Shown here in pieces: positions 1 to 26,763 of a stretch of 64,000 nt of DNA. The position numbers and the translations under genes are program-made. Within the stretch, counting starts at the first letter, position 1. The number at the start of each line of letters is the position of its first letter. Under the pieces are notes generated by a model that was not told where the DNA came from, searched no databases, and saw nothing but the letters and a program-made list of their open reading frames with translations. Source of the stretch: a virus (lineage: Duplodnaviria; Heunggongvirae; Uroviricota; Caudoviricetes); IMG/VR virus record IMGVR_UViG_3300037067_008064, positions 1-64,000 of that record. The stretch is one strand, 5' to 3'.

Positions 1-111
1 CCCTTGCTCATTATTTCATCACCACCCTTTCAGGTTGCTATAGGTTCTTCCGCAACCAGTTTCAATCATACGATTTCGTTTAACGTAAGTAGACCGCCAG
101 ATTTCTACTTG

Positions 112-756
112 TTACCCCATGTTTCTTCCTTTTACCCATCCTTGATTTAAATAATCTTGGATTTCTTCTTTTTTAATTTTCTTATTTTTTTTATTATTAG
201 TTATCCAACAAGTTCCATATTGAGAATTTCCATTTCCTTTTTGCTTAGTTGAATTTATTAAACCTAATTTTATTTTAAATTCTTCTGTATGATGTTTTCC
301 TAAAAATCTACCATTAAATTTATATTTATTTAATTTATGATTTATTTTAGTATATTTAATAAGATTTTGTTTATTTTTTTCTCTAAAAATGGGATCAGCC
401 CATTGTTTTTTAAGCCAATCTGAAGCAGCTTTATGCAATTTTATAGCATGTTCTTCATTATGAATTCCACCCTCTCCACCGATAGATAAATTCATGCATG
501 ATTTATCATAAACTAATTCTTCATTAACTAATTCTTTTTCTCTTTCTTTTAATGAACTTCTATTTGATAAAAATTCCATAATTTCTTTATTATGATTTTC
601 TTTACCATACTTATTTATAGATCTCCATAAATGTTTTCCACTACCTAAATAACCATCATTCAAGTTATCTGTTGAATGCATTCCAATGTAATATTTATTA
701 GTAATAGTACATGTGGTTTTATATATGTAGTGATATTGTTTTTGTTTCCTTGGCAT
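112..756 (-). CDS. GIY-YIG family homing endonuclease
   Basis: N-terminal YHYIYKTTCTITNKYYIGMHS...GSGKHLW block typical of GIY-YIG modules. Paralog of 1677-2336. TGAATATATAgAATAAA late-promoter-like cassette directly upstream. Lies inside the tRNA cluster. Confidence 0.6.
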   Translation of the reverse strand: MPRKQKQYHYIYKTTCTITNKYYIGMHSTDNLNDGYLGSGKHLWRSINKYGKENHNKEIMEFLSNRSSLKEREKELVNEELVYDKSCMNLSIGGEGGIHNEEHAIKLHKAASDWLKKQWADPIFREKNKQNLIKYTKINHKLNKYKFNGRFLGKHHTEEFKIKLGLINSTKQKGNGNSQYGTCWITNNKKNKKIKKEEIQDYLNQGWVKGRNMG

Positions 757-760
757 ATAG

Positions 761-780
761 ATTTTATTCTATATATTCAC
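761..780 (-). promoter_or_regulatory. late-promoter-like cassette (TGAATATATAgAATAAA) abutting an ATG
   Basis: Minus strand GTGAATATATAGAATAAAATCTAT-ATG; one mismatch to the T4-type TATAAATA box. Confidence 0.4.
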
Positions 781-803
781 AAAGAAAGTACAAATATTCC
801 CAG

Positions 804-875
804 TACCCCCGACAAGAATCGAACTCGCATCCTATGGTTCGTAGCCACATATTCTATCCGTTGAACTACAGGGGC
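804..875 (-). tRNA. tRNA-Arg (anticodon ACG)
   Basis: Cloverleaf folded by hand: GTTCGATTC T-arm, anticodon loop CTACGAA, acceptor 5' GCCCCTG / 3' CGGGGGT. Confidence 0.55.
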
Positions 876-968
876 ATAAATAATAAACTAGCCGCGATTG
901 GATTCTCCTCCAATGACATTTAACCATTCCTTTATAATAGTTTCGTACTATAGGAACTAATTTATTAG

Positions 969-1040
969 TACTCCCAAAGGGATTCGAACCCTTATTATCA
1001 GTTTAGAAGACTGACATTCTATCCTTTGAATTACAGGAGC
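969..1040 (-). tRNA. tRNA-Arg (anticodon TCT)
   Basis: GGGTTCGAATCCC T-arm; anticodon loop CTTCTAA. Confidence 0.55.
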
Positions 1041-1191
1041 ATGTGATAGAATTTTCATCTATCTTCTTAGGCTTGTTTTCATTGAGCCGGCCTTAAGTTT
1101 GACGGCCATTGGGTGAAAGATGGAGTACGATTCCATATATCCGGATTCACAGTCCGGCACTTTATCCATTTAAGTTACAATCACCATGTTG

Positions 1192-1264
1192 GGTGTCTGA
1201 TGGGGCTCGAACCCACACATACAAGATCCACAATCTTGCGCCCTACCATTAGGCTACAAACACC
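1192..1264 (-). tRNA. tRNA-His (anticodon GTG) with encoded G-1
   Basis: Extra 5' G pairing with C73 (the His identity element). Anticodon loop TTGTGGA. GGGTTCGAGCCCC T-arm. Confidence 0.65.
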
Positions 1265-1341
1265 ATTTTATATTCATTTAAATATAATTTCTATTGGTTT
1301 ATTAATTTTATATTCATTTAAATATAGTTTGTTTTAAGTTG

Positions 1342-1417
1342 TACCCTTAGATGGATTCGAACCAACGATCTTCTGGATGTAGGCCAGACGCTTTATAACC
1401 AGCTAAGCGATAAGGGC
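1342..1417 (-). tRNA. tRNA-Val (anticodon TAC)
   Basis: Anticodon arm TCTGG-CCTACAT-CCAGA; T-arm GTTGGTTCGAATCCATC. Confidence 0.6.
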
Positions 1418-1612
1418 TTTTAATTTGGATTATTTTCTATTACTTTATAATTAAAGTCCTCTAATATATGTTTGGTAACATACCAGGGATTAATTTCTAA
1501 AGCAGTAATTAATTTTTGTGAAGCATCACTATAGAAAATAATAGTTACATTATCTATTGAGTCATTAAATACTCGTTTTTCTAAATCATTCATAATATTA
1601 ATTTTTAATTAG

Positions 1613-1686
1613 AGGTGATGATGGGCCTCGAACCCATGAGTCTCTTCCTTACCAAAGAAGTGTTCTACCAATTAAACTACAACACC
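1613..1686 (-). tRNA. tRNA-Thr (anticodon GGT, tentative)
   Basis: T-arm GGGTTCGAGGCCC; anticodon loop TTGGTAA; one acceptor mismatch. Confidence 0.45.
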
Positions 1687-2336
1687 ATTTTTCTTCCTTT
1701 ACTCCATCCTTGATTTAAATAATCTTGAATTTCTTCTTTTTTAATTTTTTTATTTTCTTTATTATTAGTTATCCAACAAGTTCCATATTGAGAATTTCCA
1801 TTTCCTTTTTGTTTAATTGAATTTATTAAACCTAATTTTAGTTTAAATTCTTCAGTATGTTGGTTTCCTTTAAATGCTAAAGAATTTTTATATGACATTT
1901 TATTTCTATATTCTAAATTTTGCCATAATTTTTTAAATAATATTTGATTGCGTTCACAATTTCTTTTTCTAAAATTAATATCTGTCCATATAATTTTAAG
2001 CATTTGCTGTGTTCCTTTTTTTCTTTCTTCTTCTGAAAAACCACCATCGCCACCTAAATGTAGATTCATACATAATTTATCATGTATTAATTCTTCATTA
2101 ACTAATGTTTTTTCTCTTTCCTTTAAAGAACTTCTATTTGGCAAAAATTCCATAATTTCTTTTTTATGATTTTTTTTGCCGTGTTTATGGATTGAATTCC
2201 ATAAATGTTTTCCACTACCTAAATAACCATCATCCAAATTATCTGTTGAATGCATACCTATATAATATTTGTTTGTAATACTACATGTGGTTTTATAGAT
2301 GTAGTGATATTTTCTTCTTGATGCTCTTCTTTCCAT
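1677..2336 (-). CDS. GIY-YIG family homing endonuclease
   Basis: Paralog of 112-756. Likely start is the internal ATG at 2336 (MERRAS...); the track start at 2375 is TTG. An exact TATAAATA box lies at 2348-2355 just upstream. The stop overlaps tRNA 1613-1686. Confidence 0.6.
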   Translation of the reverse strand: MERRASRRKYHYIYKTTCSITNKYYIGMHSTDNLDDGYLGSGKHLWNSIHKHGKKNHKKEIMEFLPNRSSLKEREKTLVNEELIHDKLCMNLHLGGDGGFSEEERKKGTQQMLKIIWTDINFRKRNCERNQILFKKLWQNLEYRNKMSYKNSLAFKGNQHTEEFKLKLGLINSIKQKGNGNSQYGTCWITNNKENKKIKKEEIQDYLNQGWSKGRKMVL

Positions 2337-2344
2337 GAATATAG

Positions 2345-2361
2345 TTTTATTTATATATTCA
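2345..2361 (-). promoter_or_regulatory. T4-type late promoter box TATAAATA
   Basis: Minus strand TGAATATATAAATAAAACTATATTC-ATG. Confidence 0.5.
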
Positions 2362-2387
2362 TGAAAGAATGGCAAAAATTTCCACGG

Positions 2388-2459
2388 TGCAGGTGATGAG
2401 AATCGAACTCACATTACCAGTTTGGAAGACTGGAACACTGGCCATTGTGCTACACCTGC
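2388..2459 (-). tRNA. tRNA-Gly (anticodon TCC)
   Basis: Perfect acceptor GCAGGTG/CACCTGC; anticodon loop CTTCCAA. Confidence 0.65.
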
Positions 2460-2535
2460 GGCGCCGAATATCCTAACCATTAAACGACCTGGGTCCGAAG
2501 ACCCTGGGCGGGACTCGAACCCGCATCTTCCGGAG
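2460..2535 (-). other. tRNA-fragment-like structured element (T-arm-like hairpin + UUCG-closed hairpin + D-arm-like segment, wrong order for a tRNA)
   Basis: Minus strand reads GCGGGTTCGAGTCCCGC, then CCAGGGTC-TTCG-GACCCAGG, then GGTCGTTTAATGGTTAGGATATTCG. The elements are in non-canonical order. Confidence 0.3.
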
Positions 2536-2608
2536 AGCAAAATATGGGTCTCGAACCCACGACCTTAACCTTGGCAAGGTTACGCTCTACCAATTGAGCT
2601 AATTTTGC
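2536..2608 (-). tRNA. tRNA-Gly (anticodon GCC)
   Basis: Perfect acceptor GCAAAAT/ATTTTGC; canonical D-arm GCTC..GAGC; anticodon loop TTGCCAA. Confidence 0.65.
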
Positions 2609-2650
2609 AGTTGCGGATATCCTAACCAACTAGATGACCAACCCCAAAGG

Positions 2651-2720
2651 GGCCAGGTGAGATTTGAACTCACGTTTTCCGCCGCAGTCTACAAGGGATT
2701 CGAACCCACGTTTTCCGCCG
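2651..2720 (-). pseudogene. tRNA 3'-end fragments created by a 36-bp tandem duplication (2672-2707 = 2708-2743)
   Basis: Exact direct repeat ACGTTTTCCGCCGCAGTCTACAAGGGATTCGAACCC x2 duplicates the T-arm and acceptor 3' strand. A further T-arm (GTGAGTTCAAATCTCAC) lacks a 5' partner. Confidence 0.4.
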
Positions 2721-2796
2721 CAGTCTACAAGGGATTCGAACCCTTTGTCTTACATGGCAGACAACCATGTTCCTTTCCGGAAAGGCAAAGTAGACC
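2721..2796 (-). tRNA. tRNA-like, anticodon GTC (Asp-like, atypical D-region)
   Basis: Acceptor and T-arm are good; anticodon loop TTGTCTG; the D-region is a near-perfect palindrome CCTTTCCGGAAAGG. Confidence 0.35.
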
Positions 2797-3054
2797 AAAT
2801 TAATTATAATATTACTGGTGCGACTTTTAGATTTCAATAGTTCTCATGTGCACTAAAACCTTCTGAGTGAAACTCGCCAATGCTGCAGACATTGTTTTAC
2901 CTATCATAACAACAAGTTTTGAGTAATATTATAATTGCTGATTTTGTAAGATTCGAACTTAACTTCCACTGTACAGCCGCGTACCGTGTTGAATGACGTG
3001 CCTCCTTTACACTACAAAATCAAAATAAAATTGAGAAAATTAATAAGAGGATTT

Positions 3055-3129
3055 CCAGTATTACTACTGTTTGATAGGACTTGAACCTATAACTGTTTGT
3101 TTAATAGACAAATGCGTTACCATTACGCG
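3055..3129 (-). tRNA. tRNA-like, unresolved (anticodon loop CTATTAA; acceptor does not pair)
   Basis: Good D-arm GCGT-AATGGTA-ACGC, anticodon stem TTTGT/ACAAA and T-arm ATAGGTTCAAGTCCTAT, but no 7-bp acceptor could be formed. Confidence 0.25.
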
Positions 3130-3161
3130 ACGATGAAACTCTTATAGTTACTACAATTTTG

Positions 3162-3236
3162 CTCCCCCGACGGGAGTTGAACCCGCTTGAATTCCTGAGT
3201 GACAGTCAGACGTCCTAGCCGCTAGACCTCAAGGGA
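3162..3236 (-). tRNA. tRNA-Asp (anticodon GTC)
   Basis: Canonical Asp anticodon loop CTGTCAC; acceptor TCCCTTG/CGGGGGA with two G-U pairs. Confidence 0.55.
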
Positions 3237-3242
3237 ATGTTG

Positions 3243-3321
3243 TGGGGAAGATAGGATTCGAACCTACAAGTGGTGTGACAGTTTTACAGACTGCTGAGCC
3301 AGCCAATTGCTCAACCTCCCC
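3243..3321 (-). tRNA. tRNA-Tyr (anticodon GTA), class II
   Basis: Acceptor GGGGAGG/CTTCCCC; anticodon loop CTGTAAA; long variable arm. Confidence 0.6.
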
Positions 3322-3356
3322 AAGTTAAAACTAAGAAAATTAAAAAGAATGTTTTT

Positions 3357-3430
3357 TGGTGCTTGATGCGGGAATTTAACCCGCGCCTATTGATTTGAAT
3401 TCAATTGCTCTAACGTAGAGCTAATTAAGC
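3357..3430 (-). tRNA. tRNA with anticodon TCA (reads UGA; opal-suppressor or Trp-UCA type), genomically encoded CCA
   Basis: GCTC..GAGC D-arm; anticodon arm ATTGA-ATTCAAA-TCAAT; T-arm GCGGGTTAAATTCCCGC; 3' end ...ATCAAGC-A-CCA. Confidence 0.5.
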
Positions 3431-3460
3431 GATGTAATCCTTTAAATCACTATAGTTTTG

Positions 3461-3534
3461 CGGATAAGGTGAGATTCGAACTCACATCATTTAGCTTAAC
3501 AGGCTAAAGTTTTACCAATTATTACTACCTATCC
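3461..3534 (-). tRNA. tRNA-Asn (anticodon GTT)
   Basis: Anticodon arm TTAGC-CTGTTAA-GCTAA; T-arm GTGAGTTCGAATCTCAC. Confidence 0.55.
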
Positions 3535-3538
3535 CGGT

Positions 3539-3744
3539 AACCCTCTCAAGGATTTGAACCTTGGTCCCCTTGATTACACCTTGCCTTTTCACTTCATGCG
3601 CAATCCATGAAACGTTAAAGGTTCATCTACCTTAGTTATTTAATTACCTTTCTAATATGCCTTACGTACAACATATTAGATACTTCTTTAAACTTCTAAA
3701 TTCCGGCATCAATCCGGACGCTCTAACCACTGAGCTAAGAGGGC
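3539..3744 (-). tRNA. split tRNA-Ser (anticodon TGA): 5' half 3702-3744 and 3' half 3539-3563, with a ~140-nt intervening sequence at the variable-arm position
   Basis: 5' half = GCCCTCT-TA-GCTCAGTGGTTAGAGC-G-TCCGG-ATTGATG-CCGGA. 3' half = CAAGG-TTCAAAT-CCTTG-AGAGGGT-T. The acceptor strands pair 7/7. The intervening sequence contains hairpins (CTAATATG...CATATTAG; TTCATG-GATTGCG-CATGAA). Confidence 0.45.
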
Positions 3745-3749
3745 ATTTG

Positions 3750-3820
3750 CGCTCATAAACAGATTCGAACTGATATCAAGTGGTTAACAGCCACCCGTTC
3801 TACCTTTGAACTATATAAGC
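3750..3820 (-). tRNA. tRNA-Asn (anticodon GTT), second copy
   Basis: Acceptor GCTTATA/TATGAGC; anticodon arm GGTGG-CTGTTAA-CCACT. Confidence 0.5.
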
Positions 3821-3972
3821 ATTTAAACAGAGAAAATTAGTATGAGCATTTTTTAAACTTCTTCCCCGAGTTTTGTTTTAAATAATGGTGGGGAAGGCTG
3901 GTTACGAGCCAACTATTTTACATTTTCAATTGTATTGTTTTACGATGAAACTCATTATATTACTACTGTTTG

Positions 3973-4045
3973 TGGAGCCTAAGGGCATCGAACCCTTGTC
4001 TGGAGAGTGCAAATCTCCTATTCTCGCCATTTTAACTAAGGCCCC
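3973..4045 (-). tRNA. tRNA-Ala (anticodon TGC)
   Basis: Anticodon arm GGAGA-TTTGCAC-TCTCC; T-arm AAGGGTTCGATGCCCTT. Confidence 0.55.
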
Positions 4046-4115
4046 ATTATTTGTTAATGCTAAGTGCAGCCCACCTACTTAGCTTTACTCCTTCTTGTAA
4101 AGAACATTAACATTG

Positions 4116-4188
4116 TCGGCTACATAGGATTTGAACCTATATTGCGTGAGTATCAGTCACGTGTCCTAACCAGTTAGACGATAAGCCG
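4116..4188 (-). tRNA. tRNA-Ile (anticodon GAT)
   Basis: Anticodon arm CGTGA-CTGATAC-TCACG; the inner two acceptor pairs mismatch in my fold. Confidence 0.45.
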
Positions 4189-4196
4189 TAATGTTG

Positions 4197-4268
4197 AGCC
4201 TTCAACCAGAATCGAACTGGGATTTCAAGATTACAAGTCTAGTGTTCTACCTATTGAACTATGAAGGC
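4197..4268 (-). tRNA. tRNA-Thr (anticodon TGT)
   Basis: Perfect acceptor GCCTTCA/TGAAGGC; GTTC..GAAC D-arm; anticodon loop CTTGTAA. Confidence 0.6.
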
Positions 4269-4276
4269 ATTGTAGA

Positions 4277-4362
4277 TTTTAATAATAGGATTCGAACCTA
4301 TGAAGAATGCGAATGACTTCCGCTTTGATAACCGCTTCGCTCTATTTAAACGTCATATTGTC
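4277..4362 (-). tRNA. tRNA-like, unresolved (possibly class II)
   Basis: Canonical T-arm ATAGGTTCGAATCCTAT; the 5' part could not be folded confidently. Confidence 0.25.
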
Positions 4363-4483
4363 TCCATATTAAAATCTAATTTTATCGTACATTTTCTTCT
4401 ATCATACTTGACTAGAGCATCTTGCAGGTAGTCAGCCTACTGGCCTATAAAATTATTATGTGTCACAAAGAATTTGTACTCAG

Positions 4484-4567
4484 TGCACCCGGAGGGATTC
4501 GAACCCACGACTCTCGGTTTAAAAGACCGATACTCTATGCTTGCGCTGCCATCTGAGTTACGAGTGC
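4484..4567 (-). tRNA. tRNA-Lys (anticodon TTT) with an enlarged D-loop
   Basis: Acceptor GCACTCG/CGGGTGC; anticodon arm TCGGT-CTTTTAA-ACCGA; D-loop ~19 nt. Confidence 0.5.
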
Positions 4568-4573
4568 ATTAAT

Positions 4574-4634
4574 AATCTTTCTTAACTTTCTTTTATAGAT
4601 ACCTTTCAACGTAACATTAAAGTTAAGAAAGATT
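4574..4634. repeat. perfect 16-bp inverted repeat with 29-nt spacer
   Basis: AATCTTTCTTAACTTT ... AAAGTTAAGAAAGATT between tRNA-Lys and tRNA-Phe. Confidence 0.6.
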
Positions 4635-4673
4635 ATTTTAATTATTATACAACATGTCAAAGACCTTTTTAAT

Positions 4674-4747
4674 GTGGAACCAAACCGAATTGAACGGATG
4701 CCTTTGGATTTTCAGTCCAACGTGTCAAACCACCTACACCATAGTTC
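4674..4747 (-). tRNA. tRNA-Phe (anticodon GAA)
   Basis: D-arm GTGT..ACAC; anticodon arm TTGGA-CTGAAAA-TCCAA; acceptor GGAACTA/TGGTTCC. Confidence 0.6.
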
Positions 4748-4750
4748 CTT

Positions 4751-5428
4751 TTAATTAATTAGTTTTTCGTATTCAAGTAATTCTTTTTTTGTAATAATTT
4801 CAATTTTAATATGTTCATTTTGTCTTATAACTTGTTGCATTTTATTTTTATCTTCACCCCACCAATATCCTTTTATTTCAAAATACTTATTTAATTTAGA
4901 ACTATAAAAATCTGGGGTATAATAATGTTTATTTTTGTTTTCATCTTCCCATATAAAACTATGTTCTTTATTTCCTACACCAATTTTTATCCAATTTTCA
5001 TCTATTATATCTAATATTTTTGCAAATCTAACTTCCCATGTTCCTTGTAATTTAAATTCAGTATTATCTTTTTTAAGATATGAAAACCATTTGCATTTTC
5101 CTCCTTTATTGTTAATAGATAATTTTTTACTTATTTTTAATTTAGTTAAAGAAGTATGCATACTATTTTTCCAATGATTAATAGTTTTTCCGGATTTAAA
5201 GTTATTACTAAGAGTTTCACCAGTTTTTTTAACTCTTTCATCTATAAATTTAGTTAATCCTTTATTCCAGGGGATTTTATTTTTAAGTTTATTTTTATGT
5301 AATTTACCATTATCTGTATGCATTCTCCATATATGAGTAGCAATACCTTTTTTAGAAAATTCTTTATGACAAAAAGAACATTTATAATTACCATTATTTT
5401 GTAGCCATTCTGAATTTATTGTTATCAT
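4751..5428 (-). CDS. putative homing nuclease (Cys/His zinc-finger N-terminus + PD-(D/E)xK-like core)
   Basis: N-terminal CSFCHKEF...HIWRMH segment, then GTWE..FAKILD, YTPDFY and EIKGYW motifs (PD...E.K). Paralog of 25804-26484. Directly follows tRNA-Phe. Late-promoter cassette upstream. Confidence 0.4.
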   Translation of the reverse strand: MITINSEWLQNNGNYKCSFCHKEFSKKGIATHIWRMHTDNGKLHKNKLKNKIPWNKGLTKFIDERVKKTGETLSNNFKSGKTINHWKNSMHTSLTKLKISKKLSINNKGGKCKWFSYLKKDNTEFKLQGTWEVRFAKILDIIDENWIKIGVGNKEHSFIWEDENKNKHYYTPDFYSSKLNKYFEIKGYWWGEDKNKMQQVIRQNEHIKIEIITKKELLEYEKLIN

Positions 5429-5452
5429 TTTTATTTTATATATTCATAAATG
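5429..5452 (-). promoter_or_regulatory. late-promoter-like cassette (GAATATATAAAATAAAA-ATG)
   Basis: The same cassette recurs upstream of the endonuclease genes. Confidence 0.45.
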
Positions 5453-5515
5453 CTCTACCAAAAATATAGGTTTTTGTAAACGCAAAACCAATCAATATTT
5501 CAAAGTACAATTTAG

Positions 5516-5588
5516 CACGCCAGGTAGGAGTTGAACCCACAATCTTTGGTTTTGGAGACCACTGCTCAGCCAATTGAGCTACTGACGT
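5516..5588 (-). tRNA. tRNA-Trp (anticodon CCA)
   Basis: GCTC..GAGC D-arm; anticodon loop CTCCAAA; T-arm GTGGGTTCAACTCCTAC. Confidence 0.55.
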
Positions 5589-5620
5589 ATATTTTAAAGA
5601 ACTTATTTTTTAATTGCAAC

Positions 5621-5656
5621 AAAAAAGCGGGTGACTTTTCAGTGCGCCCGCTTTTT
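5621..5656. terminator. bidirectional intrinsic terminator
   Basis: AAAAAGCGGG...CCCGCTTTTT: a GC-rich stem flanked by an A-run and a T-run. Confidence 0.6.
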
Positions 5657-5855
5657 AATTTCTTTATTATTAAAGGTTTTATCCCTCAATTGTTTCTTCA
5701 TTAATCAGCGAGCATATTCTATTTCCTGTGCCATAATCTACGGCATCCCATTTTCTATTAATCATATGCAAATAAAATCGTGTCATCACTAATTTATTTA
5801 AAGTTTATTATTTTATTATATATCTACTAAAAAGTTTTAACTTATTTAGTTCTTG

Positions 5856-5944
5856 TTGCGGGTATCCGATTCGGACGGATGATGACATTTGAATGCCATT
5901 TGGGGTTATGAGTCCCATGAGTTAGTCCGCTACTCTAACCCGCG
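5856..5944 (-). tRNA. initiator-like tRNA-Met (anticodon CAT) with a ~20-nt extra hairpin in the variable region
   Basis: C1xA72 mismatch, GGG/CCC anticodon-stem pairs and a CTCATAA loop as in bacterial tRNA-fMet. An extra TGGCA-TTCAAA-TGTCA hairpin lies before the T-arm (ATCCG-TCCGAAT-CGGAT). Confidence 0.4.
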
Positions 5945-6855
5945 ATGTAGGAGCCCATCAGGAGCTCCGAAAGTCCATTAGCTTAATAGCTAAAATAGAG
6001 TGGTAAACCTTATGTAACAATATTGCAGTTACTATAGTGCCACTTTCCTATAACTTTGGACAATATTTTCAAATAACGTATTGCTAATATAAAACATTTT
6101 TTTCAATTTAAGACATCTTAAATGTTAAAGAATGTTAAAAGGCAATGTTCGGTTTGAGATAAAAGAAACTTCCTGTGTAATGCGCTACACTTAATTTTCT
6201 CAAAAAGAACGGTATAAATCTAGATTAACGCATGTTTATCTAATTTAATATCTATATTTGAATAAAGAAGTATTTAATTTTTTGCAACCATCCATATAGA
6301 CTAGCCTCGGTTGGTCATCCTTCCAATGTATGTTGCGCATCAGACTTGCTTAGACCTCAAGCATCTACCAGAATACCTTACGAGCTCGGTATAAAGGCTT
6401 GTTGAATTTCTCTTATTAGAAAATGGAATTTCACCATTTCCTCAATTGTTTCCTGGGTTTTCTGTACCCAACAATTTTTAGTTCATAATTCACAAAAAGA
6501 ACTTGTTTTTAATCCATAAATTACTTAACCTCTAGCACTGATTTCCATTATAAGATGTTATTATTCTTTATTCCTTGCCTAAGGGAATTGTTACACACAT
6601 TGACATGTGGTGAGTATAACTAAATAATACAAATCCCAACTTCGCGCCGGTTTAACCTTTAGTTGTTCATTTATGAACGCAATCCAATATCTCAAAGAAC
6701 ATCAGGTCTGAATAGACCGTACCGCCACTTACACTTAAGGTAGTAAGCACCTTTGATTTAAAAATTGTTATATGTAGCTCGTTACTTCTACCTTAGCTTC
6801 TTACCGTTTTCAGATAATACTATCCATTACTCTATGGAAATATAACAATATTTTG

Positions 6856-6928
6856 TAGCGGGAACGAGATTCGAACTCGTGACCTTCTGGTTATGAGCCA
6901 GGTGAGCTGGCCTCTGCTCCACCCCGCA
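6856..6928 (-). tRNA. initiator-like tRNA-Met (anticodon CAT)
   Basis: Collinear with E. coli tRNA-fMet (…GCGGGGTGGAGCAG…CTCATAA…AGGTC…TTCGAAT…CCCGC). Position 1/72 is mismatched (T/T). Confidence 0.5.
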
Positions 6929-7136
6929 ATGTATTGTAAAAATTATTCTTTTGGTCCCGCAAGCAACCATATAGATTAACACCTCGCAGTTAGAATCCAA
7001 TAATCTTTACAAATATTTTTAAAGAACTTAAATTTCAATTTTGAAGAATACTAAATTAATACAAATTTTTGAATCTAAAAAATTTTAATTGTTAATAAAT
7101 GTTAAAATTTATAACTTATTATTAATCAATTTTTAG

Positions 7137-7207
7137 AGCTTCATAAAGGACTCGAACCTTTACAACTACTTTACGAAAGTAGTATTCTTCCATTAAATTA
7201 AAGAAGC
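7137..7207 (-). tRNA. tRNA-Thr (anticodon CGT, tentative)
   Basis: T-arm AAAGGTTCGAGTCCTTT; anticodon arm CTACT-TTCGTAA-AGTAG; one acceptor mismatch. Confidence 0.35.
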
Positions 7208-9246: not shown

Positions 9247-10077
9247 TTAATCAATAAAAGCATTTGTTGAATTACCAACTTCAGTTGAAATATGAATTTC
9301 ATGCCAACTAGGTAAATTAATTGTGTGGTGATCTGGGTGTTTGACTTTACCACGACCAAGTACTGTTGCACCACGTACTTGTTGTGAAAAACCTAATCTT
9401 TCTTCTGGTGATAAACTTTTATATTCAGATTCTGTAATTATTCTATCTCGTTTAACATAAACAGTTTCACCACCAAAACGAACAACTTCTTCAACAACAT
9501 GTGATGTGCCTCCACGACGGCTAATTGGTTCATTTTTATGTATGATAGTACTTTTATCTTCTTGAAAATTTACGGGCACAAAAAACCATTCACCTTGACG
9601 GATAAATCCTTTGGTTTTTCTTTTTTTCCATTCTTTAGTTTTTACTCCTTGGCGAATCATTGAAATGTTTACAGCTTTTGGTCTAAGAAGTGCAAAAGCT
9701 TCACGAATATTTTTTGCCATAGTTACACCAGCAACAAACCAGTGCATTTCATCACGACCAAGTAAAAGTCTTTCATCAAAAGTTTCATTTGGTTTACCGC
9801 GTTTAAAAATTTGACGTCCTCCTACCCAAGAACTATCTATTCTTGGGGCACGAATAAAAATTAACATTTGACGAAGTTTTGGGTCAAAATCTAAAACTTG
9901 TAAAGTTATTTCTGATTCATTAATATCGGGGTGTATGGTCATTGTAAAATGTTCACCTTGTTTATCATTTGTAACATTCATACGAATAACCCCATCACGT
10001 GCTAATGAACTTCCTTTACGGATAGTAACACGTGCTCCAATTTTTTCAAAACTTTTTCTGAGATTATCTCTATTCAT
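9247..10077 (-). CDS. hypothetical protein (two H-x-T-x motifs; possible 2H-phosphoesterase-like)
   Basis: Long ORF between the NADAR and PTH2 genes. Contains EHFTMTIHP and HPDHHTINLP, two HxTx motifs; the function assignment is speculative. Confidence 0.45.
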   Translation of the reverse strand: MNRDNLRKSFEKIGARVTIRKGSSLARDGVIRMNVTNDKQGEHFTMTIHPDINESEITLQVLDFDPKLRQMLIFIRAPRIDSSWVGGRQIFKRGKPNETFDERLLLGRDEMHWFVAGVTMAKNIREAFALLRPKAVNISMIRQGVKTKEWKKRKTKGFIRQGEWFFVPVNFQEDKSTIIHKNEPISRRGGTSHVVEEVVRFGGETVYVKRDRIITESEYKSLSPEERLGFSQQVRGATVLGRGKVKHPDHHTINLPSWHEIHISTEVGNSTNAFID

Positions 10078-14511: not shown

Positions 14512-14988
14512 TTAAAGATTGTTAAATTTTAAATTATTAACTTTAATAAATTCATTAAGTTCTTCAGATTCAACCTTTTCAATTTCAATAAACCCTAATA
14601 GCTCATTATTAATTGTAGCTTTATCATAATCAAATACATAATATATTTTCTTAATACCTGATTGAATAAGGTTTTTAAGACATTGATCGCATGGATGAAC
14701 TGTTGTATATAATTCACAACCATCAATACTAAGATCATTTTTAGCTGCAAATAATATTGCATTCATTTCTGCGTGTATTTCGTATTTATCTGAAAAAGCA
14801 TGATGTTTTTCTCTATCAAAGGTTTCTTTACGAAATATGGTATTGCAATTTGGAAATCCGGGCGCAGTACCGTTATAACCAGTTGATAATATTCTTTTGT
14901 CTTTTACAATAAGACATCCTACTTTATAAGAAACACATTTGGATTCTTGTGAAAGCAACAATGCTGTTTTTAAAAAAAATAATTTCAT
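14512..14988 (-). CDS. cd: dCMP deaminase (CMP/dCMP deaminase zinc-binding)
   Basis: HAEMNAI and PCDQC zinc-ligand motifs. Confidence 0.65.
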   Translation of the reverse strand: MKLFFLKTALLLSQESKCVSYKVGCLIVKDKRILSTGYNGTAPGFPNCNTIFRKETFDREKHHAFSDKYEIHAEMNAILFAAKNDLSIDGCELYTTVHPCDQCLKNLIQSGIKKIYYVFDYDKATINNELLGFIEIEKVESEELNEFIKVNNLKFNNL

Positions 14989-19910: not shown

Positions 19911-21614
19911 TTATATGTTAATTTGATTGATAGCTTTGATAACAACATTAGGATCTAATTCTACCTTTTTAGCGGTTTCATAAATATCTTTAGAGTAACC
20001 AAAGATACGGAATACTTTATTACCTGCTTTCATAACAGTTGGGCCGTAACCTACTATATTAACAAGGTAAATATATGGTGTACCATATTTAGCAGAATAT
20101 GCTTTAAGCATTCCTTCTACTCTTCCACCATCTTGTTCATCTGTTATAATGATAATACGGTCGAATTTTTCATTTGATCTTAAGAATAAGCTGAAAATTT
20201 GTGAATAATCAGTTCCGTGTCCAACACGACCATTATAACCCATGAAATGTTTCTTAAGAGTATTAATGGTATCATTTGGATTATAGCCAATAATTCTTTC
20301 ACAGCCTGATGCAAAGTGATAAACTGGTGAGTTCATAGCTTTGGTGAATGTTGCCGCAACAAGTGCAGCTTTTTCACATGGTCTTTTATTAATTGAACAT
20401 GCTTTTCCACCTTTTTCAATTTGGACGCCACTACCATATCCACCTTCCATTGAACCTGATGTATCAAATACAACGGCAGTTCTTCCTTCTGGGAATAATC
20501 CTACTAAGTTTGGAATTGAACGTTCATATGCAATGTCAAGAGCCTTTGCAACCTTTGACAAATATTTATTTGAGTTAAATTCAAGTAACATTATTTCTAA
20601 TGCTAAATCAATTTGATGTGGCCATACTAAAGATTTTTGTATGAACTTATCTTCTATTAAAAGATCACATGCGCTATCTACTAATTCAGCGTTATCAGTA
20701 TTAAGAATATTTCTCATATTTCTTAATAATGCAAGATAACCGATCTTTTTCTTTGCAATAAGTTCAGTGAAGTTTTCTGTCTTAAGTTCATTAAGTTTTT
20801 CTTCAGCTGCTTCTGATGTAAGTTCACCTGATTTAAAAGCTTCAGAAACTGTTTTACCAGCTTCAGTATTCTTGTCTTCAACAGTATTAAATTGCTTTAA
20901 TAAACCTAATACAAGAGCACGTAATGCAGAAATTCTTACAAATACTTTTCCTTCTTTTTCATATGATTCAGGTAGTTGAGCAGCATACTTTGTACCTTTT
21001 ACAGCTTTTTGATAATCTGCTATTTCAACTTCAATGAATCCATTTTTCTTTGATTCAATAGGGTGAACTAAGTTAACAACGTCAACTAAAGAAACACTTC
21101 TATTTTTTGCTTGATATTTAGCCAATTCATACATATCTGCATCTTCAATTGCAAGCGCAAATCCTTTCTTAATAGCATTTGGAATTGGGGCATTAGCTCC
21201 ATTCTTTGCTAGATAACATGCTAAAATTTCTAACATGTCATCAATACGATAGACAATACCACCAGCATTTTCTTTACGTGATCTTTTTGAGTAGAATTTC
21301 TTTCCTAACTCGTCACCTGCAAAATGCTTTAAAAGTTCAACAGCTCCTCTATGTGTAACTGTTCTTTGTCCAAAAACAGTACGGGCATAAATAAGAGCTT
21401 TAGCTGCAAAAAGCTTATTTTTCTTTGCAACTTCATTAAGGACTTGAGCAAAACGTATATCACGTTCTGATTCCTTTTCATAAAATGTGTTTTCTAAACC
21501 GGTGGCAAGGATTCCGATTAATTCGTTTTCTGGTTTTTGTGTAAAACCTGCGCCACCTTGATGTGTTACAGTTGGTTGAATTTCACTAACTGGTTTTTGA
21601 TTGTACTTTGCCAT
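19911..21614 (-). CDS. Ro60/TROVE-domain protein with C-terminal von Willebrand A (MIDAS) domain
   Basis: N-terminal VTHQGGAGF...TFYEKESE fits the TROVE start. C-terminal AVVFDTSGSM is a DxSxS MIDAS motif. AAAGGAGGT ribosome-binding site 7 nt before the ATG. Confidence 0.55.
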   Translation of the reverse strand: MAKYNQKPVSEIQPTVTHQGGAGFTQKPENELIGILATGLENTFYEKESERDIRFAQVLNEVAKKNKLFAAKALIYARTVFGQRTVTHRGAVELLKHFAGDELGKKFYSKRSRKENAGGIVYRIDDMLEILACYLAKNGANAPIPNAIKKGFALAIEDADMYELAKYQAKNRSVSLVDVVNLVHPIESKKNGFIEVEIADYQKAVKGTKYAAQLPESYEKEGKVFVRISALRALVLGLLKQFNTVEDKNTEAGKTVSEAFKSGELTSEAAEEKLNELKTENFTELIAKKKIGYLALLRNMRNILNTDNAELVDSACDLLIEDKFIQKSLVWPHQIDLALEIMLLEFNSNKYLSKVAKALDIAYERSIPNLVGLFPEGRTAVVFDTSGSMEGGYGSGVQIEKGGKACSINKRPCEKAALVAATFTKAMNSPVYHFASGCERIIGYNPNDTINTLKKHFMGYNGRVGHGTDYSQIFSLFLRSNEKFDRIIIITDEQDGGRVEGMLKAYSAKYGTPYIYLVNIVGYGPTVMKAGNKVFRIFGYSKDIYETAKKVELDPNVVIKAINQINI

Positions 21615-23949: not shown

Positions 23950-24022
23950 TTGTCCTTAAAGGATTCGAACCTTTACTCTGTGGTTCAAGGCCACAGATGC
24001 TCACCAATTACACCAAGGGACA
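23950..24022 (-). tRNA. tRNA-like, anticodon TTG (Gln-like; C at position 33)
   Basis: T-arm AAAGGTTCGAATCCTTT; anticodon arm TGTGG-CCTTGAA-CCACA. Confidence 0.35.
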
Positions 24023-24160
24023 ATATTGTGTAGTCACCTTTCTACACTATCAACTAAAGTTTTTCTCATTCAATTAATCATAGATTAAAATTAGAGGCAG
24101 GCGTTGATTTGATACATTACCTTTAACCCGATCAGGTGTTATAAACGGTTTAAACCGTGT

Positions 24161-24229
24161 TGCCCCATTAAGATTCGAACTTAAAACGAGAGCTCCAAAA
24201 ACTCTTGTGTTACCATTACACTATAGGGC
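24161..24229 (-). tRNA. tRNA-Gln (anticodon TTG)
   Basis: Anticodon loop TTTTGGA (Gln-type UUUUG); shares D-arm GTGTAATGGTAACAC with the next gene. Confidence 0.45.
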
Positions 24230-24237
24230 AATTTTTG

Positions 24238-24308
24238 TTGCTTCATTAGGGGTTGAACCTAAAATATATGTGTCAGAGACATATGTGTTACCATTACACC
24301 ATAAAGCA
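24238..24308 (-). tRNA. tRNA-Gln (anticodon CTG)
   Basis: Acceptor TGCTTTA/TGAAGCA; anticodon arm TATGT-CTCTGAC-ACATA. Confidence 0.5.
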
Positions 24309-24315
24309 ATATAAG

Positions 24316-24388
24316 TCGAAGTAGTCCGACTCGAACGGACGATCTCTTGGTCCCAAACCAAGCATTCTACCAACTGAACTACACCTCG
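24316..24388 (-). tRNA. tRNA-Pro (anticodon TGG)
   Basis: GTTC..GAAT D-arm; anticodon arm CTTGG-TTTGGGA-CCAAG; T-arm GTCCGTTCGAGTCGGAC. Confidence 0.55.
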
Positions 24389-24394
24389 TTAAAG

Positions 24395-24479
24395 TAGCCG
24401 GGATGGGGGTCGAACCCACACATCCGTAAAGGATAACAGATTTTAAGTCTGTCGCGTCTGCCAATTCCGCCACCCAGCC
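24395..24479 (-). tRNA. tRNA-Leu (anticodon TAA), class II
   Basis: Anticodon arm ACAGA-CTTAAAA-TCTGT; long variable arm; T-arm GTGGGTTCGACCCCCAT. Confidence 0.55.
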
Positions 24480-24684
24480 ATATATTCGGCGAGGGAAAGA
24501 GTACCATTTCATTTGCATTAATTTGGCTTTCGATTTAAATCTCTTTTGTAAGCAAGGCTGTTCTAATGGTTTAAAATTAGATGCTTCCGCGGTCATCCTA
24601 ATTTTCTAACATTATTCCCTACACATTGCGTGAACTATCACCCCTCCGAATATATTTGTTCAATAAAACAATGAACTTTACTTG

Positions 24685-24757
24685 TACCCCTACTCAGATT
24701 CGAACTGAGATACTCGGCGTTTAAGACCGATACGATTACCAATTGCGTCATAGAGGC
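24685..24757 (-). tRNA. tRNA with Leu-type anticodon TAA but class I (short variable arm)
   Basis: Acceptor GCCTCTA/TAGGGGT; anticodon arm TCGGT-CTTAAAC-GCCGA; 4-nt variable loop. Confidence 0.4.
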
Positions 24758-24980
24758 ATGACTAGAAAGGGTCTCATCCTTTCTTTTAAATAATCTTAAT
24801 GTGCACCAAAATTATTTCATCTGAAATTTATAAGGAAAAATATTCAGCAAAACCCATCCCTTTTTTATGTTTCCATAGGTTACCATAGATCCGCAAGATG
24901 CTTTGGAAAAAGGTTATAACTTAGCCTTTCAAAAAGTACTGATTCACAGTTTCACAGTTTACCAGCTGTGCCTGGGAGAG

Positions 24981-25062
24981 TGACCTTAGAGAGACTTGAA
25001 CTCTCAAACCTTTCGGTACTGGCTTCTTAGACCAGTGTGTTTGCCAATTTCACCATAAGGCC
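24981..25062 (-). tRNA. class II tRNA, anticodon uncertain (loop CTAAGAA)
   Basis: Acceptor GGCCTTA/TAAGGTC; long variable arm; T-arm GAGAGTTCAAGTCTCTC. Confidence 0.4.
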
Positions 25063-25329
25063 AATTGATATTTTTTTGATAGATTCATGAACCTCTATAT
25101 GTAGGTAAACGTCTTCCTTCGCTGTTTATCCTTGGGCCAATCTTCCACTCGAGTGTTACCCAACCTACTCATCATACTTTCACTAACCAATAGTTAATCA
25201 TATGTACTTAGCGTCTTCCAATTTCCGCCACAAAAAAATATCAAAGATCAATTGATTGAGAAAATTTAATTGAGTCTTTTGTTTATAGACCATAATACGA
25301 TGAAACTCAATTGTTACTACAATCATTTG

Positions 25330-25404
25330 TATAAGTGGTGAGATTCGAACTCACGAACGCTTGGCTCCAGACCAAGTCCATATAGCCATCTGTGGAACAC
25401 CTAT
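25330..25404 (-). tRNA. tRNA-like, anticodon TGG (Pro-like; C33)
   Basis: Acceptor ATAGGTG/CACTTAT; anticodon arm CTTGG-TCTGGAG-CCAAG. Confidence 0.35.
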
Positions 25405-25414
25405 ATTTTACTTG

Positions 25415-25487
25415 TACACCCAAAGGGATTCGAACCCTTACCCTATGCTCCTAAGGCATATACGTTTACCAGTTACGCCATGGGTGC
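25415..25487 (-). tRNA. tRNA with Leu-type anticodon TAG but class I
   Basis: D-arm GCGT..ACGT; anticodon arm TATGC-CTTAGGA-GCATA; T-arm AAGGGTTCGAATCCCTT. Confidence 0.4.
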
Positions 25488-25581
25488 AGTTAAAACTGAG
25501 AATTTCAATAAGAGCATTTCTTTAGTCAGATTTTCAAAGTCAGATTGATACGATGTAACTCTATATTTTACTACAGTTTAG

Positions 25582-25652
25582 ATTTATTAATAGGATTCGA
25601 ACCTATGCCTCCGGGCTCAGTGCCCAGCGTGCTTCCACAACACCTTAATAAA
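25582..25652 (-). tRNA. tRNA-like, anticodon CTG (A at position 33), all-A/T acceptor stem
   Basis: Acceptor TTTATTA/TAATAAA; anticodon arm CTGGG-CACTGAG-CCCGG; T-arm ATAGGTTCGAATCCTAT. Confidence 0.3.
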
Positions 25653-25750
25653 AACACATACTATAAATTATTGCCGTAATTTAATTTTGTGTATTGAATC
25701 TGCTCCTACTTTATAACCGGCAAGTTATAAAAAAGAGCCTCCATCAATTG

Positions 25751-25829
25751 TCCGGCAGGATGGGGTCGAACCATCATACACCAATTACGCTTTTAATGCA
25801 TGTTTATAAGACATGGGCGTTACTGCCGG
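25751..25829 (-). tRNA. atypical tRNA-like gene (anticodon-like loop CTTATAA = TAT; rearranged D-region)
   Basis: Perfect acceptor CCGGCAG/CTGCCGG. T-arm GATGGTTCGACCCCATC. The anticodon-like hairpin CATGT-CTTATAA-ACATG sits inside the D-arm position. Overlaps the 3' end of CDS 25804-26484. Confidence 0.3.
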
Positions 25830-26484
25830 TTATTTTATTTAAAATTTCTTTTTCATTATTAATCATTTTTGAATTAATAATTACTAAATTAATTTTGTTA
25901 TTTTTTATTACTTTGTTCATTTTGTCTTTATCTTTAATACTAAAATATCCTTTAACTTCTAAATAAAGATTATATTTTGGTAAATAAAAATCAGGACAAT
26001 ATGTTCTCTTTATTTTATTATCAATATAATTTAAGTAAATTTTTCTAATCCATAAGATATTATTATCATTTAATAAATTAGCTATTTTAAGTTCCCAAGT
26101 TCCTCTAAGAATAAATTCCTCCTTTTCAATATTAAAAATTTTATACCATTTAATATTTTTAAATCCTCCTTTACCTTGTTCTTCAATAATTTTTGACCTA
26201 ATTAAAGAAAGTTTTTCTTTAACTTCATTACTTAATTTTCTTCCTTTACTAGCATTACTTAATTTTAATCTTCCTTCTTTTGATAAAGACCAACATTCTC
26301 CCTTTTCTTTGGCTAATTGATATTGATTTTTATTTTTAGGTTTTAACCCGTTTCTTACTTCATCATTATATTCAGTAAAATGAGATTTATAAATAATTCT
26401 ATTTGGATTATATTTACAACCATTTTGGTGTTTTATTAATCCGCCTTTATTATTAATTTCTTTATTACAAAATATACATTTCAT
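25804..26484 (-). CDS. putative homing nuclease (zinc-finger N-terminus + PD-(D/E)xK-like core)
   Basis: MKCIFCNKE...HQNGC, then GTWELKIANLL, YCPDFY and EVKGYF; paralog of 4751-5428. The 3' end overlaps a tRNA-like gene. GAATATATAA cassette upstream. Confidence 0.4.
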   Translation of the reverse strand: MKCIFCNKEINNKGGLIKHQNGCKYNPNRIIYKSHFTEYNDEVRNGLKPKNKNQYQLAKEKGECWSLSKEGRLKLSNASKGRKLSNEVKEKLSLIRSKIIEEQGKGGFKNIKWYKIFNIEKEEFILRGTWELKIANLLNDNNILWIRKIYLNYIDNKIKRTYCPDFYLPKYNLYLEVKGYFSIKDKDKMNKVIKNNKINLVIINSKMINNEKEILNKITGSNAHVL

Positions 26485-26531
26485 AAATTATATATTCACA
26501 AATTTTTCAAAGAACTGTGCGCTAACCGCAG

Positions 26532-26603
26532 TACTCCAACCCGGATTCGAACCGAGATTCACGGACTGAAAATCCGCTGTCCTAGCCGTTAGACGAAAGG
26601 AGC
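26532..26603 (-). tRNA. tRNA-Glu (anticodon TTC)
   Basis: D-arm GTCT..GGAC; anticodon arm GCGGA-TTTTCAG-TCCGT; T-arm CTCGGTTCGAATCCGGG. Confidence 0.5.
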
Positions 26604-26692
26604 ATTTACCCTCAAGATCTCTTGATATTACTATCATTGTAGGCGTGGATTTGACGCCTCGTTGTTCGGTTTATTAGACCTACACCTTGAGC

Positions 26693-26763
26693 AGGCCGGT
26701 GTGGGATTTTAACCCACGTCTCCAAGATAAAATCTAGGACTCTAAACACTAAGCTAACCGGCC
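26693..26763 (-). tRNA. tRNA-Lys (anticodon TTT), second copy
   Basis: Perfect acceptor GGCCGGT/ACCGGCC; anticodon arm CCTAG-ATTTTAT-CTTGG; T-loop TTAAAAT. Confidence 0.45.

Follow-up and report, generated by a model that had tools for sequence, protein, structure and literature searches.

What is encoded by a transfer RNA (tRNA) gene whose two halves are held apart by a structured insertion? The question is raised by a 206-nucleotide (nt) unit on the minus strand, at positions 3539–3744, of a 64,000-nt stretch of DNA (hereafter the window) that forms positions 1 to 64,000 of the IMG/VR virus record IMGVR_UViG_3300037067_008064 (Caudoviricetes). A first-pass annotation, made from the sequence alone, had described the unit as a tRNA-Ser(TGA) gene split by ~140 nt at the variable-arm position, and had offered a hyper-expanded variable arm, a novel small intron or a miniature mobile element as explanations. 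The comparative analysis presented here indicates that the element is a member of a small conserved family in uncultivated phages, and not a broken or ordinary serine tRNA. With somewhat better than even confidence, we favour the explanation that it specifies a conserved tRNA-scaffolded non-coding RNA that keeps its two-domain insert, that is, a tRNA mimic with an effector domain.

The anatomy of the unit was confirmed as a tRNA 5′ half of 43 nt, an insert of 138 nt, and a T arm with acceptor strand (all on the minus strand). The 5′ half (3744–3702) reads GCCCTCT TA GCTC AGTGGTTA GAGC G TCCGG ATTGATG CCGGA. It comprises the acceptor 5′ strand GCCCTCT (3738–3744), a D arm of class I type with a 4-bp stem (GCTC-AGTGGTTA-GAGC; 3720–3735), and an anticodon-type arm with a 5-bp stem and a 7-nt loop (TCCGG-ATTGATG-CCGGA; 3702–3718), in which the triplet TGA occupies 3709–3711. 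The insert extends over 3564–3701, and measures 133 nt if GGGAC at 3564–3568 is counted as the variable loop. It is followed by the T arm CAAGG-TTCAAAT-CCTTG (3547–3563) and by the closing segment 3539–3546, made up of the acceptor 3′ strand AGAGGGT (3540–3546) and the discriminator T (3539), with no CCA encoded. The insertion lies between nucleotide 43 and nucleotides 44–48, after the anticodon stem and outside the anticodon loop, as had been proposed. The two acceptor strands pair at all seven positions, with six Watson-Crick pairs and G1-U72.

By its four arms, 7-bp acceptor stem, 5-bp T stem and tertiary nucleotides, the unit has the make-up of a canonical tRNA. The universal tRNA nucleotides U8, A14, G18, G19, A21, U33, G53, T54, T55, C56, A58 and C61 and the G15/C48 pair are all intact. 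As it stands, the unit is called neither by ARAGORN nor by the Rfam tRNA model. When the insert was swapped for a variable loop of 3–6 nt, ARAGORN called a tRNA of 71–74 nt in 20 of 20 variants. The chance that two fixed 7-mers pair at 7/7 positions with at most one G-U pair is ~3e-4, and a strict search for split tRNAs in 1.4 Mb of phage arrays returned no second genuine case. A recent duplication of another tRNA of the phage was rejected, because the best paralogue is only 64% identical to the spliced sequence.

Comparison with related phages, which had been suggested as a check, yielded two homologues with the same cloverleaf and the same insert position. The productive route began with homologues of a PD-(D/E)xK-type endonuclease (4751–5428) encoded 1 kb from the element. 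A full-length homologue at 5448–5677 of contig L107 (nhmmer, E = 4e-7) was reached via a more distant endonuclease homologue, and a third copy at 168–376 of contig L111 was found by a pattern built from two shared blocks. All three members share the order acceptor, class I D arm, 5-bp stem-loop, insert, T arm, acceptor. Their inserts, of 138, 137 or 160 nt, occupy the same place in the cloverleaf, and their identity is 53–65% overall and 46–59% over the insert. A covariance model of the family (R1) gave the three members 200–226 bits, with 200.3 bits for the window unit. The next best of 382 matches in 1.43 Mb of phage tRNA-array loci reached 48.7 bits; these are ordinary tRNAs that match the cloverleaf part of the model. 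A match of 41.7 bits at L108 3048–3332 proved to be a tRNA-Lys(UUU) with an anticodon-loop insert of ~210 nt, and was placed outside the family.

Further searches returned no additional members. No homologue of the element was found among GenBank phages, and no Rfam family other than tRNA matched any of the three members. The Rfam tRNA model spans the L111 copy at 36.5 bits, above its gathering score of 29. Exact and degenerate patterns for either half and for the hairpin of the first insert domain gave only self or chance matches in IMG/VR, the JGI metagenomes and GTDB. Relatives of ~66% identity, reached via a neighbouring 276-aa (amino acid) gene, showed no synteny around that gene. The 80 loci reached through a SegB-like endonuclease held no homologue and were used as a background census.

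The structural alignment of the three members shows that the unit evolves as a single gene. The RNAalifold consensus contains ten helices, namely the four cloverleaf arms and those of two insert domains, the three-segment V1 and V2. In this consensus 91.8% of the pair cells are paired, compared with 29–51% when partners were slid by 1–3 columns, and 20 of the 57 pairs are changed on both sides, compared with 1–4 when slid; none of 500 shuffles matched the observed pairing values. Doubly compensated pairs number two in the acceptor stem, three of the five in the T stem, one in the anticodon-type stem (CG, GC and AU in the three members), nine in V1 (helices 4–6) and five in the inner hairpin of V2 (helix 9). 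The D stem is invariant in all three members. The anticodon-type stem is kept across the members, and its loop is unconserved. The two halves reported by the first-pass annotation are therefore parts of one gene, in which the helices of the acceptor, the anticodon-type arm, the T arm and the insert covary in both homologues. Because halves and insert are inherited and constrained together, we regard chance juxtaposition as excluded, and joint inheritance speaks in the same way against a pseudogene, an assembly artefact and a mobile-element insertion.

A tRNA gene killed by a foreign or spacer insertion, or an artefact of assembly, could be suspected from several features of the locus. The insert resembles inter-tRNA spacers in GC content (0.33) and folding z-score (z), the closest relative of the phage is without the element, and homing endonucleases and tRNA fragments abound in the region. 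Against this stand the conservation of insert and exons together in three phages (53–65%), with compensatory changes in every variable helix, and the 206 nt of the unit, which are 100% identical in two other assemblies (Logan SRR18595300 and JGI Ga0172381), and thus in three altogether. Inverted repeats, duplications and extra copies are lacking as well. The covariation brings this reading close to refutation, and we give it hardly any weight; the insert identity of 46–59% argues against L107 and L111 representing one recent lineage. The miniature mobile element fared no better: the insert is present once, lacks both terminal inverted repeats and a target-site duplication, and has been passed on with its exons. 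No copies of the insert were found elsewhere in the window, in the 1.4 Mb of loci, in IMG/VR (by pattern) or in GenBank phages, and inspection by eye revealed no inverted repeats or duplication at the insert.

Outside the D and T arms, the best-conserved sequence of the molecule lies in the insert, and we therefore regard the insert as functional RNA. Domain V1 (3631–3700) is a hairpin of three segments (TTTAG/CTAAG, GTTTAAA/ATTAAA and ATCTAATATGTT/GGCATATTAGAA) with a folding z of −3.5. Domain V2 is built from two near-invariant blocks, GGTAGATGAACCT and GGTGTARTCAAGG, that pair with each other. The first (GGTAGATGAACCT; 3619–3631) forms the 5′ strand and is identical in 3/3 members, and the second (GGTGTAATCAAGG; 3568–3580) forms the 3′ strand and pairs with it through GGT/ACC and ATC/GAT. 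In RNA letters, GGUAGAUGAACCU pairs (GAU/RUC, ACC/GGU) with GGUGUARUCAAGG around a covarying hairpin. The blocks are 38 nt apart in the window and L107 and 37 nt apart in L111. Between them, the window copy has the inner hairpin TTTCATG-GATTGCG-CATGAAG (3592–3612), and hairpins of other sequence occupy this site in L107 (CCTGTC…GACAGG) and L111. The GA/GUA internal loop of V2 could form a sheared G-A or loop-E-like motif. A class I cloverleaf, V1, and V2 with GGUAGAUGAACCU…GGUGUARUCAAGG directly 5′ of the T stem define the new family, and this combination occurs in the window, L107 and L111.

Thermodynamic stability was a less useful guide. The insert has a folding z of −3.2 to −3.5; the inter-tRNA spacers of the phage are often strongly structured too, several with z of −2.4 to −4.5, and therefore the insert z-score alone is not decisive. 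A long-range V2 helix taken from a constrained single-sequence fold was replaced by the comparative structure. A 5-bp complementarity between the anticodon loop (U33–U37) and AUCAA in the insert is within chance and not conserved in the homologues, and the motifs CTAAGGTAGA and GGATTGCG, which recur in the spacer at 5945–6854, were judged chance.

The serine label given to the gene did not hold up. The loops of the anticodon-type arm are AUUGAUG in the window, GGUACGGA in L107 (8 nt, no U33) and UUUAAGG in L111. They differ in both sequence and length, and hence the family is not an isoacceptor; at least L107 cannot decode conventionally, with its 8-nt loop without U33. The window loop reads A32-U33-UGA-U37-G38, while 30 of the 31 ARAGORN-called tRNAs of the window have a purine at 37. 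A conserved 7-nt loop with U33 and purine 37 is therefore not a property of the family, as the window copy has U37 and L107 has 8 nt. Moreover, the body is that of a class I tRNA (4-bp D stem, U73, G1-U72, U37), and the 3-bp D stem, single variable hairpin, G73 and A37 of bacterial class II tRNA-Ser are missing. Only the triplet TGA fits tRNA-Ser, and the insert has two domains. Since the triplet is unconserved, the homologues settle against a fixed serine identity, and the window unit does not appear to be a dedicated tRNA-Ser decoder.

The unconserved and partly non-canonical loops argue for a cloverleaf that serves as scaffold or mimic, and against a spliced decoder tRNA as the product. On the favoured reading, the element would be transcribed inside a polycistronic tRNA operon and excised like the neighbouring tRNAs, with RNase P generating the 5′ end and the tRNA 3′-end machinery, together with CCA addition, the 3′ end. 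The mature RNA would retain its two-domain insert of ~135–160 nt, which would leave the body between the anticodon stem and the T stem, at the site of a class II variable arm. The cloverleaf would provide processing, stability and a tRNA-like shape. The working part would be the conserved insert, chiefly the paired invariant blocks GGUAGAUGAACCU and GGUGUARUCAAGG. Its most likely role is to bind a partner, either protein or RNA, in a molecule that mimics a tRNA. Among the three explanations of the first-pass annotation, the hyper-expanded variable arm comes nearest to the evidence.

Several results weigh against this interpretation. With three members only, the family statistics are thin, and covariation cannot be seen in blocks that do not vary. 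The element is missing from the nearest syntenic relative (L102), and so it is dispensable for that lineage. A conserved structure would be equally expected of a self-splicing intron. TCA, the codon matched by the UGA triplet, is the commonest serine codon of the phage (24.9 per 1000; 41% of serine codons), and no canonical tRNA-Ser was found among its 37 ARAGORN tRNAs (31 in the window and 6 more in contig L042) or the four extra Rfam matches. The L111 copy has a canonical loop with U33 and G37 and is called a tRNA by Rfam, so that decoding by some members may occur.

The last three results would suit a working decoder tRNA with a giant variable arm, of which the window copy reads UCA as serine and the others have other anticodons, much as in allo-tRNAs. 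Seryl-tRNA synthetase recognises the long variable arm and not the anticodon, every nucleotide of the tertiary contacts is intact, and related arrays often contain class I tRNAs with an extra variable hairpin (53 of 1379). However, the window copy has A32, U37 and G38, whereas the phage tRNAs for codons starting with U keep A37; the L107 loop has 8 nt and no U33; and the D arm is of class I, the discriminator is U73 instead of G73, and positions 1 and 72 form a G-U pair. Furthermore, L102 has neither the element nor a tRNA-Ser, and an arm of 135–160 nt would be about six times that of any known decoder. Overall, we consider a decoding function unlikely.

Could the insert instead be removed? 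A new small intron at 43/44, removed either by its own catalysis or by phage or host enzymes that cut and religate the RNA, would leave a class I tRNA of 71–75 nt. Deletion of the insert indeed restores a textbook cloverleaf, the conserved structured core could be catalytic, the 5′ junction offers a U and the 3′ junction a G, and some distant relatives of the phage encode an RNA ligase. Other phage tRNAs also have anticodon-loop inserts of 29–123 nt that appear not to be group I. In contrast, none of the known intron signatures was found. Neither the window nor L107 or L111 gave a match to the Rfam group I model (RF00028, Intron_gpI) at E ≤ 1, and the same search detected a true group I intron in L075 (10795–11018) at 70 bits as positive control. 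The smallest known group I introns measure ~200 nt, for example 205 nt in Azoarcus tRNA-Ile, and the insert of 133–160 nt falls below this size and lies after a closed anticodon arm. A group I intron was rejected on these grounds, in line with the first-pass annotation, which had found the insertion unlike this class.

A bulge-helix-bulge intron was rejected after a brute-force search that gave 0 candidates, with at least one in 12% of trials with shuffled inserts. No splicing endonuclease or ligase was recognised among the 50 open reading frames (ORFs) of the window scanned against Pfam or PHROGs. In addition, the anticodon loops of the exons are neither conserved nor all canonical, which would be unexpected for a spliced tRNA; selection does not hold the exons to a canonical loop. 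The novel small intron is therefore disfavoured, and we consider it improbable that the insert is spliced out.

Returning to the tRNA-scaffolded RNA, a bolder version is conceivable, to which we attach a low probability: the family may represent a new functional class of phage RNA in which a true tRNA body brings the conserved ~140-nt domain to machinery that binds tRNAs. Such a molecule might be charged and enter the ribosome or a complex with aminoacyl-tRNA synthetase or EF-Tu, like transfer-messenger RNA (tmRNA), or act as a decoy of a defence nuclease that targets tRNAs; alternatively, the V2 core might be a small ribozyme that excises itself at 43/44. If the insert is retained, it would provide a natural example of a tRNA scaffold for a large RNA payload. 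If removed, it would be, to our knowledge, the first tRNA intron of bacterial type outside both the group I class and the anticodon loop.

The window is an AT-rich piece (~27% GC) of an uncultivated phage of the myovirus type. Its genes, almost all on the minus strand, include a tail sheath, NAD-salvage genes and numerous homing endonucleases. Among GenBank phages, the window found a match neither as DNA nor as protein; a protein encoded 1 kb from the element recurs on a 316-kb JGI contig. Two tRNA arrays (800–7200 and 23950–26760) hold 31 tRNAs according to ARAGORN, to which Rfam adds four matches, and L042 extends the array by 6 ARAGORN tRNAs to a total of 37. The element fills the gap between two tRNA-Asn genes on the same strand (3749–3820 and 3460–3534), separated from each by 4 nt, the usual spacing of the array. 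No ORF, promoter or terminator was found within the unit, and the nearest promoter-like site upstream lies at 4660–4632.

Comparison with the syntenic contig L102 shows how variable this locus is. Nucleotide identity is 74–88% across the TROVE gene, a deaminase gene, the NAPRTase gene and the tRNA array, and the relative of the 4751–5428 endonuclease is 78% identical. Homology ends at window position 3821 and restarts at 3458. The 362-bp cassette tRNA-Asn/element/tRNA-Asn (3460–3820, minus strand) is absent as a block, and its site (L102 9966–10953) is taken by a homing-endonuclease-like ORF of 987 bp, with a product of 304 aa, which contains a degenerate tRNA-Asn-like sequence in frame. The missing cassette implies that the element is accessory and lies in an indel hot spot. 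At its positions 106–108, the near-identical contig L042 lacks the 678 bp (window 125–801) that hold a SegB-like ORF (window 112–756). Both sites, 125–801 and 3460–3820, thus show presence/absence polymorphism of homing endonucleases.

Other genes and tRNAs of the window were recorded as well. A TROVE/Ro60-like protein of 567 aa is encoded between the two arrays (19911–21614, minus strand), 16 kb from the element. It matches phrog_850 at 1e-26 and the PDB entries 9l5y and 9kop at 8e-15, and its gene is kept in L102 (1034–2737). Some of the odd tRNA-like RNAs might accordingly be analogues of Y RNAs. A protein with the cytidine/adenosine-deaminase fold (14512–14988, minus strand; PF00383 at 3e-24) may be a TadA-like tRNA A34 deaminase; the tRNA set of the phage includes the A34 anticodons Arg(ACG) and Leu(AAG). 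A tRNA missed by ARAGORN (3360–3430, minus strand; 62 bits with the Rfam tRNA model) has the anticodon TCA, which reads the UGA stop codon, and the syntenic tRNA in L102 (10980–11054) has the anticodon TTA and is labelled tRNA-Stop by ARAGORN. The two related phages thus appear to carry suppressor-type tRNAs of differing specificity at one position of the array.

We used ARAGORN to survey 90 phage tRNA-array loci for comparable units. In total, 1379 tRNAs were called and 311 T arms lay outside any call. Many of these orphan T arms belong to tRNA-shaped units of 97–400 nt, and oversized tRNA-like RNAs turned out to be common in phage tRNA arrays linked to homing endonucleases. Standard tRNA finders thus miss a sizeable population of tRNA-shaped genes in these arrays. 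The new family comprises the largest and most tRNA-complete units found with an insert at the variable-arm position. Only one other case with an enlarged variable region was found (L084 4491–4620; 61 nt, UAU loop), and it is not homologous. Among the called tRNAs, 53 measure 80–96 nt (L016–L095) and are class I isoacceptors with an extra variable hairpin; they have Cys, Glu, Thr, Ile, Val, Asn, His, Lys, Gln, Met and Trp anticodons. Mismatches between class and anticodon occur in the window too, on the minus strand: a 90-nt class II-type tRNA with anticodon CAT (5855–5944), and two 74-nt class I-type tRNAs with the Leu anticodons TAA and TAG (24684–24757 and 25414–25487).

A second group consists of circularly permuted tRNA-like modules that sit exactly between normal tRNAs. 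Examples are found at 2609–2683 and 2460–2534 of the window (minus strand), L102 11620–11697, L025 2842–2902, L034 5623–5683 and 7789–7854, L046 6982–7040, L003 62–121, L032 3658–3722 and L074 9744–9804. They consist of a variable loop, a T arm, an acceptor hairpin capped by a short loop, in many cases UUCG, then a D arm and a closing stem of 5 bp. This is the domain order of the tRNA-like part of YrlA, with no Ro-binding stem present. The minimum-energy fold of 2609–2683 is a permuted cloverleaf, and 2460–2534 is kept in L102 at ~79% identity with a compensated change in the T stem. Next to the first of these modules, positions 2684–2719 (minus strand) are a hybrid 3′ half of a tRNA that has been duplicated (CGGCGGAAAAC, T arm, GTAGACTG). 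Logan contig L001 stops within this repeat, at 2714, which implies that the region is recombinogenic or hard to assemble.

Several larger units have a tRNA-like acceptor and T arm. A unit of 96–97 nt (window 4278–4373, minus strand; L102 9392–9488) has the acceptor TTTAATA/TATTAAA, the T arm ATAGG-TTCGAAT-CCTAT and no recognisable D or anticodon arm. Two of its helices are compensated in L102 (GCGGA/TTCGC to GTGGA/TCCAC, and ATAGG/CCTAT to GTAGG/CCTAC), and a family of equal length is seen again in L016, L019, L020, L023 and L038. A 169-nt unit (window 1–118, minus strand, with L042 114–281) has the acceptor GGGGTAA/TTACTCC, which includes G3-U70, the identity pair of alanyl-tRNA synthetase, and a canonical T arm; it has no D or anticodon arm, no evident tag ORF and no tmRNA call by ARAGORN. 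A tRNA-Lys(TTT)-like gene at 4492–4575 (minus strand) has a 19-nt D loop with a GC-GCAA-GC mini-hairpin and a partial Rfam match, and the syntenic L102 9163–9249 is a Lys tRNA of 87 nt with a long variable arm. Finally, the 910 nt between two tRNA-Met genes (5945–6854, minus strand) contain no ORF of at least 120 aa and no Rfam match. Part of this spacer is kept in L102 (6829–7182) at 66% identity, and it could hold a large structured RNA, since ROOL and GOLLD RNAs adjoin phage tRNAs.

Inserts in the anticodon loop or arm were seen in L058 (12517–12618; 29 nt), L018 (8420–8540; 50 nt), L108 (3048–3332; ~210 nt) and L075 (11298–11494, 123 nt; 9816–9949, ~65 nt), the last of which also contains the true group I intron mentioned above. 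The Rfam group I model did not match the inserts that lie in the stretches scanned with it, the two of L075. The 29-nt insert of L058 lies at 37/38 of a tRNA-Val(GAC), the position of archaeal and eukaryal introns.

How does the element compare with known systems? Group I tRNA introns likewise split a tRNA gene by a structured and conserved RNA. They differ in that they lie in the anticodon loop, measure ~200 nt or longer and match RF00028, whereas the insert of the element lies at 43/44 and measures 133–160 nt. T4 RNA C and RNA D have remained unexplained since the 1970s. Species 1 RNA (rnaC, 139 nt) and species 2 RNA (rnaD) of T4 resemble the element in lying flush in a phage tRNA cluster by a SegB-type endonuclease. 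In its fold, rnaC has a terminal stem, a pair of long hairpins and a T arm. The element agrees with it in this layout only (flush in the cluster, T arm and terminal stem, oversized interior), as rnaC is without a D arm or anticodon-type arm and shows no sequence similarity. The function of both T4 RNAs is still unexplained (PMC3014915, PMC9697503), and the new family offers a testable candidate in the puzzle of the stable RNAs of phage tRNA clusters.

Class II tRNAs (Ser, Leu, bacterial Tyr and Sec) share with the element the full cloverleaf, an extra arm between the anticodon and T stems, and the G15/C48 pair with the contacts of the T and D loops. Their variable regions reach ~25 nt as a single hairpin. 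At the lower end, they start at ~10 nt (PMC7609411). The region of the element, in contrast, has 133–160 nt, two domains with six helical segments, and conserved blocks, and it is combined with a class I D arm and an unconserved anticodon loop. Such a conserved domain, several-fold the length of any variable arm known so far, would extend the limits of tRNA architecture. Allo-tRNA-like irregular tRNAs with five-stem junctions are likewise tRNA-shaped RNAs from metagenomes; they have additional stems, anticodons of various kinds and a doubtful role in decoding, and some occur in polycistrons (Mukai et al. 2017, reviewed in PMC7609411). Their acceptor/T geometry is 8/4 or 9/3 on a Sec-like body, whereas that of the element is the canonical 7/5, and its insert is far larger and conserved in sequence.

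YrlA and other bacterial Y RNAs (RF02553) combine tRNA mimicry with an effector module, phage-encoded examples exist (PMC4201824), and the window phage encodes the TROVE/Ro-like protein. In YrlA the T arm, capped acceptor and D arm are permuted, and a Ro-binding stem with the motif GNCGAAN0-1G replaces the anticodon arm (PMC4201824). The element has the normal order of arms and an open acceptor, and with no CGAA motif in the insert and no RF02553 match it was rejected as a YrlA RNA. In addition, YrlA genes lie next to rsr, whereas the TROVE gene of the window is 16 kb away from the element and L102 has TROVE without it. In tmRNA, a tRNA-like acceptor and T arm likewise enclose a large internal domain. 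However, tmRNA is without an anticodon arm and requires G3-U70 and a tag ORF, none of which is true of the element; its C3-G70 pair, its anticodon-type arm and the lack of an ARAGORN tmRNA call led us to reject this assignment. A mechanism of its own has come to light with each of the RNAs that join a tRNA shape to a second module, such as tmRNA, YrlA and the viral tRNA-like structures; the family described here keeps the full cloverleaf and adds a conserved domain to it.

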